Notes under the pieces: model-generated
Database searches by the model: none
Told to the model about the DNA's origin: nothing
What the model saw: the letters and a program-made list of their open reading frames with translations, nothing else
Origin: a virus
Lineage: Duplodnaviria; Heunggongvirae; Uroviricota; Caudoviricetes
Direction: 5' to 3' (one strand)
Length of the DNA: 14,994 nt
IMG/VR virus record: IMGVR_UViG_2681813161_000005
Made by a program: the position numbers and the translations under genes
Part shown: piece by piece, positions 3,115 through 6,955 of the stretch
Numbering within the stretch: position 1 is the first letter of the stretch
How the letters are laid out: every line of letters starts with the position of its first letter

Positions 3115-3447
3115 TCAGGGTGCAGAAGGACTAAAGATAAACGTTTTCTTCACGCCTTTACACGGCCTGTCCTTCTCAAATCGCCATTTTGCCATCGCCT
3201 TTACAACCTGCTCATCAAACAAATGGTGCGGCTCTGAACGGATAAACTCAATTCGGGTGACAGTACCATCAGCACCAATATCAAACTTCACATCAACCCG
3301 TCCCTTTATATAATTTGCCGCTGCATAGGCCGGATATTGTGGTAATGCCTTAACCAACTGTCGGGGCATATCTGTTTTATGTTGCGTACAGCCCATAACC
3401 AGAGAAGACAACAAAATAATTAACGGAAGGTTTCTTTTCATTTTCAT
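3115..3447 (-). CDS. Lipoprotein with a TonB C-terminal-domain-like sequence (alternative GTG start at 3456)
   Basis: Signal peptide MKMKRNLPLIILLSSLVMGC with a lipobox-like VMGC. Mature part PQYPAYAAANYIKGRVDVKFDIGADGTVTRIEFIRSEPHHLFDEQVVKAMAKWRFEKDRP matches the remembered E. coli TonB C-terminal domain pattern (PQYPARAQALRIEGQVKVKFDV..DGRV...PANMFEREVKNAMRRWRYEPGKP). It lacks TonB's N-terminal membrane anchor and Pro-rich spacer. Confidence 0.6.
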   Translation of the reverse strand: MKMKRNLPLIILLSSLVMGCTQHKTDMPRQLVKALPQYPAYAAANYIKGRVDVKFDIGADGTVTRIEFIRSEPHHLFDEQVVKAMAKWRFEKDRPCKGVKKTFIFSPSAP

Positions 3448-3461
3448 TCCCGGCACAGATA

Positions 3462-4033: not shown

Positions 4034-4432
4034 CTAGTTAATACACTGAGTGCGGATATATTCCTGCGCCCCTTCCAGTTGCTTCTGCATTGTCATCAAC
4101 CGCTCTCTGAGGGTGAAATAATCCCGTTCAGCGGTGTCTGCCAGTCGGGGGCCGGTTGCATTATCCATTCCGGAGGTGCCGGTGGCTTCACGCACGGTAC
4201 CGGAGCAGGTGGCGTTGATCCGCAGGCGCTTACGACCAGCGGCAACATCACGCTGGCGCTGCTGCATGTCAGTAATGGTTGCGTTTGCCAGCTCCAGCTC
4301 TCTGGCTTTTTTATCGCGCTGCGCTTTGTAGGTGATGGCGTTATCACGGTAATGGTCTGTTGCCAGCCACAGCGCACCACAGACCACCAGCAGAATAACG
4401 GTAAACGCGGAAAGCATTCGGTTTATGTTCAC
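4034..4432 (-). CDS. Rz: Rz i-spanin (lambda Rz homolog)
   Basis: HYRDNAITYKAQRDK...RLADTAERDYFTLRERLMTMQKQLEG matches lambda Rz closely; N-terminal TM segment. Lacks an internal segment (about 24 aa, from memory) relative to lambda Rz. Start is GTG at 4432 or ATG at 4417. Confidence 0.85.
   Translation of the reverse strand: MNINRMLSAFTVILLVVCGALWLATDHYRDNAITYKAQRDKKARELELANATITDMQQRQRDVAAGRKRLRINATCSGTVREATGTSGMDNATGPRLADTAERDYFTLRERLMTMQKQLEGAQEYIRTQCIN
4096..4248 (-). CDS. Rz1: Rz1 o-spanin lipoprotein embedded in the +1 frame of Rz
   Basis: MLPLVVSACGSTPPAPVPCVKPPAPPEWIMQPAPDWQTPLNGIISPSESG matches lambda Rz1 (..MLPLVVVGC..CVKPPPPPAWIMQPPPDWQTPLNGIISPSERG). Lies entirely inside Rz. The true start may be upstream or non-AUG, because the signal peptide is short. 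Confidence 0.75.
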   Translation of the reverse strand: MLPLVVSACGSTPPAPVPCVKPPAPPEWIMQPAPDWQTPLNGIISPSESG

Positions 4433-4560
4433 CCCAGCAGCCCCGACGAAGACAACATCATCCAGGCCATGGAAAGAAAAAGAGCAACCAGCATTAGTGA
4501 AAATGAAATGCCGACAATTACACAGAGGATCTTCGCCAGCGTTATGAGTTTGTCTGACAT
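4429..4560 (-). CDS. Small hydrophobic membrane protein (43 aa), hypothetical
   Basis: Strong Shine-Dalgarno AAGGGAGGA 6 nt upstream of the ATG at 4558..4560. Protein MSDKLITLAKILCVIVGISFSLMLVALFLSMAWMMLSSSGLLG is essentially one or two TM helices. Its stop overlaps the Rz start. Confidence 0.4.
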   Translation of the reverse strand: MSDKLITLAKILCVIVGISFSLMLVALFLSMAWMMLSSSGLLG

Positions 4561-4574
4561 GCTTAATCCTCCCT

Positions 4575-4757
4575 TCACGATTTCAACGCAATGACCAGTT
4601 TTGCCAGCCCATACAGCATCGGGGACACAGCAACACCGACCGCCACCCACTTAATGGCAAAAGCCAGTGCTCTGCTGATGTCATCAGTTACAGGCGCTTT
4701 CAGTTCAAGGCCGTTTTTCATGGTCAACCTCAACAGAATTCGTTTATACTTCGCCAT
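4575..4757 (-). CDS. Small C-terminally membrane-anchored protein (60 aa), hypothetical
   Basis: AAGGGAG Shine-Dalgarno upstream of the ATG at 4755..4757. Basic N-terminus MAKYKRILLRL followed by a C-terminal TM segment IKWVAVGVAVSPMLYGLAKLVIAL. Sits between the endolysin and the spanins. Confidence 0.4.
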   Translation of the reverse strand: MAKYKRILLRLTMKNGLELKAPVTDDISRALAFAIKWVAVGVAVSPMLYGLAKLVIALKS

Positions 4758-4788
4758 GTTCTCCCTTGCCTTACTCAAGGTCAGAAAC

Positions 4789-4826
4789 ACAAAACCCCGC
4801 CTGGTGCCAACAAACGGGGTTTTTAC
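4789..4826. terminator. Rho-independent terminator-like hairpin, bidirectional, downstream of R
   Basis: AAAACCCCG / CGGGGTTTT stem with a loop of about 15 nt. Followed by TTTTACTTTTATT on the + strand and TTTTGTGTTT on the - strand. Confidence 0.55.
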
Positions 4827-4912
4827 TTTTATTCACTTACGTTTCGCCAGTTCGCAGGATTTCGTGTTATCCGTCCGCGTGCTCATGCCTTATTTTCAGC
4901 AAAATATTCTGC

Positions 4913-5446
4913 TTATCTGTCGATGTCCCAGCACGCCAGCGCACTTTCCTGGTCTCGCCGGGATACCTGACCGTAGCAATTATTTGAGCGGATACGGCAG
5001 TCTCTGCCACCGTCCTTAATCCACCAGCGAATCGCTTCGCATGCTCCCCTGCGGTCACCAGCATTAATCCGTCTGTAAAACGTCGACGGGAAACACTTAC
5101 CGGGGCCAATGTTATAGGGACAAAATGACGCGATACCCGCTTTCTGGGGTTCGGTCAGCGGCACTTTAATATTGCGCTCCACCCATGCCAGCGCCTTATC
5201 ACGCTCAATGGCGTTGACCTGGTCGCATTTTTCCTTCGACAACTTCATGCCCGGGACGACAGGTTTACTATCCACCAGGATGGCACCGCGGCAGATGGTC
5301 CAGATACCCGCGCCATCACGGTATGCCGTGGTGTGGTTACCTTCCTTTTCATCCAGAAACTGGTCGAGGATTTCAGGCGCAGGCGCACCTGCGGCAATCA
5401 GCGCCAGAACGGCAGCCGACAGGCCGTATTTGATTTTGGTGTTCAT
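4913..5446 (-). CDS. R: Phage lysozyme-type endolysin with N-terminal SAR (signal-anchor-release) segment, 177 aa
   Basis: N-terminal weakly hydrophobic Gly/Ala-rich TM (YGLSAAVLALIAAGAPA) followed by a lysozyme-like domain, resembling the phage 21 R21 layout. Lies in a lysis cassette with a pinholin. Confidence 0.85.
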   Translation of the reverse strand: MNTKIKYGLSAAVLALIAAGAPAPEILDQFLDEKEGNHTTAYRDGAGIWTICRGAILVDSKPVVPGMKLSKEKCDQVNAIERDKALAWVERNIKVPLTEPQKAGIASFCPYNIGPGKCFPSTFYRRINAGDRRGACEAIRWWIKDGGRDCRIRSNNCYGQVSRRDQESALACWDIDR

Positions 5447-5646: not shown

Positions 5647-5700
5647 TGAACCGCCCCGGGAATCCTGGAGACTAAACTCCCTGAGAAAGAGGTAAACAGG

Positions 5701-6026
5701 ATGACTAAAAATACTCGTTTTTCCCCGAAGTCCGTCAGAGGGCGATTCGTATGGTTCTGGAAAGTCAGGGCGAATATGACTCACAGTGGGCGGCAATTTG
5801 TTCCATTGCCCCAAAGATTGGCTGTACACCGGAGACTCTGCGTGTCTGGGTACGCCAGCATGAGCGGGATACCGGAGGCGGTGATGGCGGGCTCACCACC
5901 GCTGAACGTCAGCGTCTGAAAGAGCTGGAACGTGAAAATCGTGAACTGCGCCGCAGTAACGATATCCTTCGCCAGGCTTCCGCTTATTTTGCGAAGGCGG
6001 AGTTCGACCGCCTCTGGAAAAAGTGA
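5701..6026 (+). pseudogene. IS629 orfA with a -1 frameshift in a homopolymer (HTH N-terminus lost; internal restart possible at 5751)
   Basis: [15 protein letters not shown]... diverges from copy 1 ([18 protein letters not shown]) after codon 9 because of the one-base-shorter C-run. The downstream frame [10 protein letters not shown]... is identical to copy 1. Confidence 0.8.
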
Positions 6027-6913
6027 TGCCACTGCTGGATAAGCTGCGTAAGCTGTACGGGGTCGGACCGGTATGCAGTGAACTACATATTGCCCCGTCA
6101 ACGTATTACCACTGTCAGCAACAGCGACATCATCCTGATAAACGCAGTGCCCGTGCGCAGCGCGATGACTGGCTGAAGAAAGAGATACTGCGCGTATACG
6201 ATGGGAATCATCAGGTATACGGTGTGCGTAAAGTCTGGCGTCAGTTGTTACGGGAAGGTATCAGAGTGGCCAGATGCACTGTGGCACGTCTCATGGCGGT
6301 TATGGGACTTGCCGGTGTTCTCCGGGGTAAAAAGGTCCGTACGACCATCAGCCGGAAAGCCGTTGCCGCAGGCGACCGCGTAAACCGTCAGTTCGTGGCA
6401 GAACGACCTGACCAGCTGTGGGTGGCTGATTTTACTTACGTCAGCACATGGCAGGGCTTCGTCTATGTGGCGTTCATTATTGATGTGTTTGCCGGATACA
6501 TCGTGGGGTGGCGGGTCTCATCGTCCATGGAAACGACATTCGTGCTGGATGCTCTGGAGCAGGCGTTATGGGCCCGTCGACCGTCCGGCACGGTCCATCA
6601 CAGTGATAAAGGTTCTCAGTATGTATCGCTGGCCTACACACAGCGGCTTAAGGAAGCCGGATTACTGGCATCAACAGGAAGTACAGGCGACTCGTATGAC
6701 AACGCGATGGCGGAGAGCATCAATGGTCTTTACAAAGCGGAGGTAATACACCGTAAGAGCTGGAAAAACCGTGCAGAAGTGGAACTGGCCACACTCACGT
6801 GGGTGGACTGGTATAATAATCGACGATTGCTGGAAAGGCTGGGCCACATCCCTCCGGCAGAAGCAGAAAAAGCTTATTATGCTTCCATCGGAAACGATGA
6901 TCTGGCAGCCTGA
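6023..6913 (+). CDS. IS3-family transposase OrfB (DDE), 296 aa
   Basis: Protein identical to the orfB products of copies 1 and 3. Confidence 0.9.
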
Positions 6914-6955
6914 GTTCACAGATAAAACACTCTCCAGGAAACCCGGGGCGGTTCA

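Follow-up and report, generated by a model that had tools for sequence, protein, structure and literature searches.

Lysis cassettes of lambdoid phages are usually deemed complete with a holin, an endolysin, and the spanins, and in lambda and phage 21 nothing lies between the endolysin gene R and the spanin gene Rz. The DNA analyzed here, a stretch of 14,994 nucleotides (nt) from a virus of the Caudoviricetes (IMG/VR record IMGVR_UViG_2681813161_000005; below, the window), carries a lysis cassette in which two short open reading frames (ORFs), ORF1 and ORF2, fill this gap. All genes of the cassette lie on the minus strand, and coordinates are window positions. A preliminary description had reported two ORFs of 60 and 43 amino acids (aa) in the R-Rz gap, each with a strong Shine-Dalgarno (SD) sequence and one hydrophobic helix, and both the description and its coordinates proved correct. 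It had also called such a gap unusual. In the one cassette read for comparison, that of the K-12 Qin prophage, rrrQ and rzpQ do overlap by 4 nt; the part of the claim about lambda and phage 21 is established knowledge. The features of the two genes are as follows.

4575..4757, minus strand: ORF1, ATG at 4757 and stop at 4577-4575, small membrane protein of 60 aa, MAKYKRILLRLTMKNGLELKAPVTDDISRALAFAIKWVAVGVAVSPMLYGLAKLVIALKS
4761..4767, minus strand: SD sequence of ORF1, AAGGGAG, 3 nt 5' of the ATG
4429..4560, minus strand: ORF2, ATG at 4560 and stop at 4431-4429, single-pass membrane protein of 43 aa, MSDKLITLAKILCVIVGISFSLMLVALFLSMAWMMLSSSGLLG
4567..4575, minus strand: SD sequence of ORF2, AAGGGAGGA, 6 nt 5' of the ATG and conserved in relatives

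Several described systems resemble this pair in part. P2 LysA, P1 LydB, LydC, and LydD, and T4 RI are, as ORF1 and ORF2 may be, products of non-essential genes in or beside lysis cassettes, and they shift the time of lysis. Those proteins, however, are larger or multi-pass and have one cognate holin each, whereas ORF1 and ORF2 occur with three holin sets, and neither ORF showed similarity to any of them in the Pfam, PHROGs, and NCBIfam libraries. The S21 pinholin (PF04971), encoded in the same cassette, is likewise a small membrane protein; it has Gly/Ser helix faces, and a possible second start at M13 of ORF1 adds to the likeness. Pinholins have two hydrophobic segments, whereas each ORF has one. 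The features of a class II holin, at least two transmembrane segments and a charged cytoplasmic C-terminal tail, are found in neither ORF (ORF1 ends ...ALKS and ORF2 ends ...SSSGLLG), and neither matches any Pfam holin family, PF04971 included. The idea that ORF1 is an S21 pinholin homologue, prompted by the chimeric protein P0239, was rejected at an hhalign probability of 1%; recombination or misassembly probably gave rise to P0239.

Mobile cassettes of small genes flanked by stem-loops (PeSL cassettes) occur in T4-type phages. The present locus is similar in that a repeated hairpin precedes each small ORF and a hairpin forms the mosaic boundary, but the hairpins here are terminator-like, come without a promoter, belong to the late operons of temperate phages, and are not associated with these genes universally. 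The Mu releasin gp25 (DUF2730, PF10805) is a 99-aa, single-pass non-holin of N-out/C-in topology whose acidic cytoplasmic domain spans 73 aa; its gene lies a few genes away from that of the endolysin, and it is paired with diverse endolysins, both signal-anchor-release (SAR) and non-SAR (Chamblee et al. 2022, PMC9239132). As small single-pass membrane proteins encoded near an endolysin, ORF1 and ORF2 resemble the releasin, which is a precedent for a real lysis function of accessory membrane proteins. They differ from it in that they are 60 and 43 aa long, have no Pfam match (DUF2730 included), are predicted to be N-in, and coexist with holins.

ORF1 and ORF2 are genuine, separate genes

The 541-bp R-Rz stretch was searched in 5,426 complete Escherichia coli genomes and was present in 989 of them, at full length and 95 to 99% identity, with both ORFs annotated as hypothetical. 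The sole indel between relatives and the window falls in the non-coding stretch after R. A comparison of homologous prophages found ORF1 and ORF2 to be separate in about 230 copies, with no single intact ORF spanning both. The preliminary description had allowed that the interval might prove non-coding in such prophages; instead, both ORFs are annotated there and are under purifying selection. Searches of Pfam, NCBIfam, PADLOC, PDB sequences, and Rfam gave no match for the interval or for either ORF. Plus-strand ORFs across the interval (142, 208, and 40 aa) were rejected as candidates, as they match no family and selection acts in the minus-strand frames.

Both proteins are already catalogued, although without an assigned function. 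ORF1 is identical to the RefSeq hypothetical protein WP_001151823.1 and matches PHROG 1115 over its full length (residues 1-60, E 2.6e-42), with further members of its family in PHROGs 4493 and 3246. ORF2 is identical to the RefSeq hypothetical protein WP_001280932.1 and matches PHROG 4906 over residues 1-43 (E 2.1e-23). The label of all four PHROGs is "unknown function." A 49-aa form of ORF2 from Shiga toxin (Stx) phages is XECs191, one of 465 intergenic ORFs called translated by ribosome profiling (RIBOseq) in O157:H7 Sakai; in lysogeny broth (LB) it had an RNA value of 30.0 reads per kilobase per million (RPKM), a ribosome RPKM of 12.6, and a coverage of 0.55, with the inner membrane as its predicted location (Hücker et al. 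2017, PMC5597208). The position within the lysis cassette is discussed for neither protein in PMC5597208, PMC8136144, or PMC9239132.

Selection was estimated from about 290 related IMG/VR loci and was purifying in the ORF frames and absent in shifted frames. For ORF1 (224 intact copies, 37 DNA haplotypes), variable sites numbered 12/5/26 by codon position, and the ratio of nonsynonymous to synonymous substitution (dN/dS) was 0.25. The shifted frames are full of stops and have higher ratios of nonsynonymous to synonymous polymorphism (pN/pS), 0.54 and 1.75. The SD sequence is kept as AAGGGAG or AAAGGAG in about 220 of the 224 copies. Constraint is uneven along the gene: codons 13-30 are nearly frozen (pN/pS 0.03), and codons 1-12 are relaxed (pN/pS 0.82). 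The second in-frame methionine, M13, is preceded by its own GAGG and is not conserved as methionine in distant relatives. We considered M13 as the true start and rejected it on the evidence of those relatives, which keep M-x-x-Y-[KR]-[KR]-x-hydrophobic-x-R-hydrophobic-[ST]-M-K-N-G-L-E-x-x-A-P, including the part upstream of M13, encoded by different codons. This persistence of the N-terminal motif makes translation of the 60-aa form probable despite the relaxed codons 1-12; dual starts at M1 and M13 are possible.

The overall figure for ORF2, 0.49 with variable sites at 21/19/23, is unimpressive because the first 26 codons barely vary even in DNA and the last 17 consist of a few mosaic alleles. 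A more divergent clade with 44 codons, from the cassettes called type C below, is more informative: across 14 haplotypes, variable sites numbered 10/4/15 and pN/pS was 0.11. This clade differs from the window at 40 of 129 nt (31% divergence), with pS of 0.47-0.75 versus pN of 0.16-0.30 and a pN/pS of about 0.4. That the frame stays open at this divergence is not significant alone, as it also stayed open in 30% of random-substitution replicates. Across clades, residues S2, D3, V14, V16, G17, S19, F20, L24, and V25 do not vary, the protein remains hydrophobic, and its length stays at 43-49 aa.

These data bear on the idea that ORF2 is mainly a translational-coupling leader that feeds ribosomes to a weak Rz or lipoprotein start, its peptide mattering little. 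Such a leader would fit the position of the ORF2 stop, which overlaps or sits 4-12 nt from the next start in every architecture, the weak SD that is all the Rz start region of the window offers, and the mosaic 3' end of the gene. The peptide, however, is itself under purifying selection, as the type C figure and at least six haplotypes encoding one protein show, and its nine invariant residues, hydrophobicity, and length have persisted between clades. In addition, in many alleles Rz has an SD of its own that overlaps the ORF2 stop (such as GGGTGAGGGGGATATG). We consider a pure leader very improbable.

How ORF2 meets Rz depends on the choice of the Rz start. The preliminary description had ORF2 overlapping that start; this holds if Rz begins at the GTG at 4432-4430, which opens the Rz frame and overlaps the ORF2 stop TGA, and fails if it begins at the ATG at 4417 chosen by PGAP, 12 nt past ORF2. 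At the other end, the first A of the ORF2 SD is the final base of the ORF1 stop codon. The Rz reading frame is open throughout ORF2 (4560-4432, minus strand) but has no ATG, GTG, or TTG there. Some records, such as phi-O153, annotate Rz across the ORF2 stretch, and some prophages carry frameshifted ORF2 variants that enter the Rz frame.

Hydropathy was computed as the Kyte-Doolittle maximum in a 19-residue window. ORF1 has a single hydrophobic segment with a maximum of 1.88 at residues 38-56, comparably weak to the SAR-like N-terminal segment of R (1.74). Ahead of this helix lies a basic head of about 28 aa with a conserved MKNGLE-x-AP motif. AlphaFold2 placed a helix at residues 25-59 and left the head disordered (mean predicted local distance difference test [pLDDT] score, 64). 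ORF2 likewise has one segment, with a maximum of 2.89 at residues 11-29 and about 10 residues past the helix. It therefore lacks the periplasmic domain by which an inner-membrane spanin (i-spanin) reaches the outer-membrane spanin (o-spanin). A comparison of ORF2 with Rz as a possible duplicated N-terminal helix gave an hhalign probability of 1%. ORF1 and ORF2 do not appear to be paralogues (hhalign 3%), and their common V-x-VG-x-x-x-S-x-ML stretch is not significant.

The preliminary description had also suggested that a single holin-like gene of about 105 aa with three transmembrane segments was split by a frameshift into the two ORFs. Adjacency and the combined length are in keeping with this, or with chance ORFs in non-coding DNA. 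However, the ORFs lie in different frames with two stops between them, have their own conserved SDs, occur independently of each other, are selected in their annotated frames, and together contain two hydrophobic segments, not three; no intact fused homologue was found among about 250 protein clusters. The comparative data refute both possibilities, to which we give next to no credence. Three proteins of 103-105 aa, P0123, P0127, and P0134, were considered as the fused holin and are only upstream read-through extensions of ORF1, and P0213 and P0218 are chimeras in the opposite order, ORF2 then ORF1. Chimeras of this kind are known from both P0213 and PHROG 3246.

Module boundaries and cassette contexts

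The only hairpin in the R-Rz gap stands upstream of ORF1 and is the first element of a portable ORF1 module.

4791..4823, minus strand: terminator-like hairpin (stem, 13 bp; loop, 7 nt) followed by a T-rich tail

No sigma-70-like site was found on the coding strand between R and Rz in a scan limited to the sigma-70 consensus, which weak or other promoters could escape. Because the gap lacks such a site and the 13-bp hairpin with its T-run lies upstream, both genes would be read only by terminator-resistant, Q-modified polymerase in the late operon.

Comparisons with other cassettes delimited the module. The window and the otherwise unrelated locus L181, of type C, are homologous only over 4827-4462, where the DNA is 83% identical; this segment takes in the hairpin, ORF1, and the greater part of ORF2. 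The Stx-type locus L259 matches the window across R as far as 4828 and then again from precisely the ORF2 ATG (4560) onward, with an ant gene in place of the segment 4827-4561. A hairpin with the same AAAACCCCG/CGGGGTTTT stem lies 5' of a distant ORF1 relative in L297, although the association of hairpins with ORF1-type genes is not universal among relatives. In L298 (3935-4903), a major capsid gene of the lambda E type is followed by three near-identical hairpins, AAACGCCCCGGCAGTTxGCCGCTGCCGGGGCGTT, each in front of a different small membrane-protein gene, these genes including an ORF1 relative and a paralogue; several of these proteins end in ...RWW. About 60 nt after the R stop (window 4855-4913, minus strand) recur 3' of the type C lipoprotein gene (L181 3534-3593) at 78% identity and, to judge from the sequence, may be a shared boundary for mosaic recombination.

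ORF2 was found in four types of cassette. Type A, that of the window and the majority, consists of the S21-type pinholin, a YdfR-like gene, the SAR lysozyme, ORF1, ORF2, and Rz/Rz1, and includes intact, plaque-forming PhiR phages carrying both genes. Type B, from Stx phages (about 270 phage records), has the SAR lysozyme and then ant, the stop of which overlaps the start of a 49-aa ORF2, followed by Rz/Rz1; it lacks ORF1. In phage 933W (L303, NC_000924.1), the 49-aa homologue (MMGWLMISDKLITLVKSLCVLVGISF...) lies unannotated at 27420-27569 between ant and Rz and is the same protein as XECs191. Type C comprises Phage_holin_8, Phage_holin_3_7, a GH108 endolysin, ORF1, a 44-aa ORF2, and a gene for a 60-aa, Cys-rich lipoprotein (L181 and L299-L301; PHROG 7528, labelled "unknown function"); no recognisable spanin was seen in this cassette. 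In Cronobacter and relatives, a type C cassette without ORF1 directly follows LT-II-like toxin genes. Type D, from Salmonella, has Phage_holin_3_1, another endolysin, a different small hydrophobic ORF, and an ORF2-like gene overlapping the Rz start.

Across these types, ORF2 always lies immediately 5' of Rz or of the 60-aa lipoprotein gene, at spacings from overlap to 12 nt. Its genera, assigned by protein names, as two scans of genome contigs gave no confirmed loci, are Escherichia, Shigella, Citrobacter, Cronobacter, and Salmonella. The two genes also occur apart: ORF2 without ORF1 in about 270 Stx and other phage records and in Cronobacter, and ORF1-family genes without ORF2 in Salmonella and metagenomic phages.

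The holins of these cassettes bear on the further suggestion of the preliminary description that the ORFs are antiholin-like. One version of it makes ORF1, ORF2, or both antiholins specific to the S21-type pinholin encoded upstream. Both are small membrane proteins in a pinholin/SAR-endolysin cassette, and both helices have small-residue faces like that of the second transmembrane domain (TMD2) of the pinholin. S21, however, encodes its own antiholin as a longer translation product, the similarity search above gave no relationship, and an antiholin has one cognate holin, whereas the same genes accompany S21-type holins, Phage_holin_8 with Phage_holin_3_7, and Phage_holin_3_1. We hold an S21-specific antiholin to be highly improbable. 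More generally, because the same genes serve three unrelated holin/endolysin sets, any holin-specific antiholin is unlikely and a common target would be needed.

ORF1 ranges more widely than ORF2. A profile search over 1.8 billion representatives recovered only 20 ORF1 relatives. The distant ones lie after the major capsid gene (L298), after tail-fibre genes (L297), and in baseplate and tail clusters (L304 and L305). An ORF1-family protein of 49 aa, P0243 (MKNGLEIDAPVS...VRWW), is encoded at 3501-3650 in L307-L309, 2 nt 5' of Rz, in a common Salmonella prophage remnant that adjoins an IS110-family element; the protein is recorded in 1,647 blocks of the collection. Four small hydrophobic ORFs (47-57 aa) fill the R-Rz gap of L206 (2814-3363), and two of them are ORF1-family paralogues with different N termini; this junction looks like a hotspot for mini-membrane-protein genes.

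Such arrangements could mean that both genes are portable, moron-like cargo at a permissive R-Rz junction and encode late membrane peptides unrelated to lysis, with jobs such as superinfection exclusion, countering host membrane-based defence, or affecting a host transporter. The ORF1 relatives amid capsid, tail-fibre, and baseplate genes support this, as do the three L298 hairpins before three different genes, the module boundary exactly at the hairpin of the window, and the filling of the gap elsewhere by ant or by the four ORFs of L206. Classical prophage-expressed morons, however, have their own promoter and a downstream terminator, whereas here the consensus scan found no promoter and the sole hairpin lies upstream. 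Neither protein had a PADLOC match, and ORF2 was only ever found directly before the Rz or lipoprotein gene, in four cassette types and five genera. Cargo is the main rival to a role in lysis, and we regard it as rather unlikely.

A possible accessory role in envelope disruption

Our best guess, held tentatively, is that ORF1 and ORF2 encode late-made, non-essential inner-membrane accessories of envelope disruption. Three sets of observations connect the genes with lysis. First, the ORF1-ORF2 pair is common to two otherwise unrelated cassettes (types A and C). Second, ORF2 invariably precedes the Rz or lipoprotein gene, whether the cassette is S21/SAR, Stx, Phage_holin_8 plus Phage_holin_3_7/GH108, or Phage_holin_3_1. 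Third, an ORF1-family gene lies just before Rz in the Salmonella remnant, and the plaque-forming PhiR phages have both genes. The preliminary description had likened the ORFs to P2 LysA as regulators of lysis timing; for ORF2, the position directly before the Rz or lipoprotein gene is suggestive of such a role.

In the proposed mechanism, ORF1 and ORF2 would be made only at the same time as S, R, and Rz/Rz1, from transcription of the late lysis operon by Q-modified RNA polymerase. The predicted topology of ORF1 has the C-terminal helix as an inner-membrane anchor and leaves the conserved basic head in the cytoplasm. For ORF2, the prediction is N-in/C-out: its helix of about 26 residues bears a conserved small-residue face (C13, G17, and S21), and about 10 residues reach the periplasm. 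ORF2 and the gene after it are probably coupled in translation. We speculate that ORF2 acts at or with the spanin or lipoprotein step and that ORF1, as a portable late-operon cassette, may tune the membrane event. The target common to all the holin/endolysin sets might be membrane energisation, a host membrane protein, or an outer-membrane step.

A number of observations weigh against such a role. Phage 21 and lambda lyse without such genes, so any contribution of ORF1 and ORF2 to lysis would be accessory only. No homology in Pfam, NCBIfam, PADLOC, or the PDB connects either protein with lysis. Four distant ORF1 relatives stand outside lysis cassettes, and their presence elsewhere in late operons argues against a lysis-specific role of ORF1. 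As to ORF2, its last 17 codons are mosaic and weakly constrained, and the RIBOseq signal of XECs191 is weak, comes from uninduced cells, and is possibly shared among multiple prophage copies. Finally, the R-Rz gap also accepts the unrelated ant gene, and the position of ORF1 and ORF2 may reflect an insertion hotspot.

A bolder proposal goes beyond an accessory role. ORF2 could be an unrecognised, widespread fourth component of the enterobacterial lysis cassette: an inner-membrane peptide of 43-49 aa, translationally coupled to the gene for the outer-membrane step (Rz/Rz1 or the small lipoprotein) and governing the timing or occurrence of that step independently of holin and endolysin type. ORF2 and ORF1-type genes would then be part of a mobile class of hairpin-plus-mini-membrane-protein elements exchanged to tune lysis, including the timing of Stx release. 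We think this distinctly unlikely as a whole.

State of the lysis cassette and implications of the two genes

The genes around ORF1 and ORF2 in the window are as follows.

4913..5446, minus strand: R, SAR-type lysozyme of 177 aa (Pfam Phage_lysozyme, 2.8e-24), annotated as lysozyme in relatives
4034..4432, minus strand: Rz i-spanin, start at GTG 4432 or ATG 4417 (Pfam Phage_lysis, 9.9e-33)
7161..7373, minus strand: S21-type class II holin (pinholin) gene (tblastn, 79% identity over 71 aa)

Although the lysis cassette of this E. coli-type prophage has decayed, its ORF1 and ORF2 remain intact and match the common alleles exactly. Compared with L001, Rz has lost 75 bp, in frame, between short direct repeats, GATGTTGC(T/C)GC; the deletion takes away 25 aa of the coiled coil together with the start codon and the N-terminal part of the signal peptide of the embedded Rz1. 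Because both the Rz coiled coil and the Rz1 start are affected, the spanin of this prophage is, as read from its sequence, probably dead. An element like insertion sequence IS629 at 5647-6955, inserted within the YdfR-like gene (PHROG 1085), splits the pinholin gene from R. It is one of three 100%-identical copies of about 1309 nt, the others lying at 1-~1267, where the window edge cuts the element, and at 8395-9703. On the 3' side of the cassette, 3115-3456 (minus strand) encodes a predicted lipoprotein of 113 aa whose C-terminal domain is of the TonB type (Pfam 1.4e-14). The PHROG it matches best, 1267, carries the label "Rz-like spanin," apparently an error.

In about one in five complete E. 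coli genomes, the lysis cassette thus has two additional conserved genes in its R-Rz gap. If a lysis phenotype is absent, the genes would represent small-membrane-protein cargo, and the R-Rz junction an insertion hotspot. Phage lysis releases Shiga toxin, and ORF2 lies just 5' of Rz in most records of Shiga toxin phages, where it is often unannotated. Any effect of ORF2 on the timing or completeness of lysis, if true, would therefore bear on the release of Shiga toxin.

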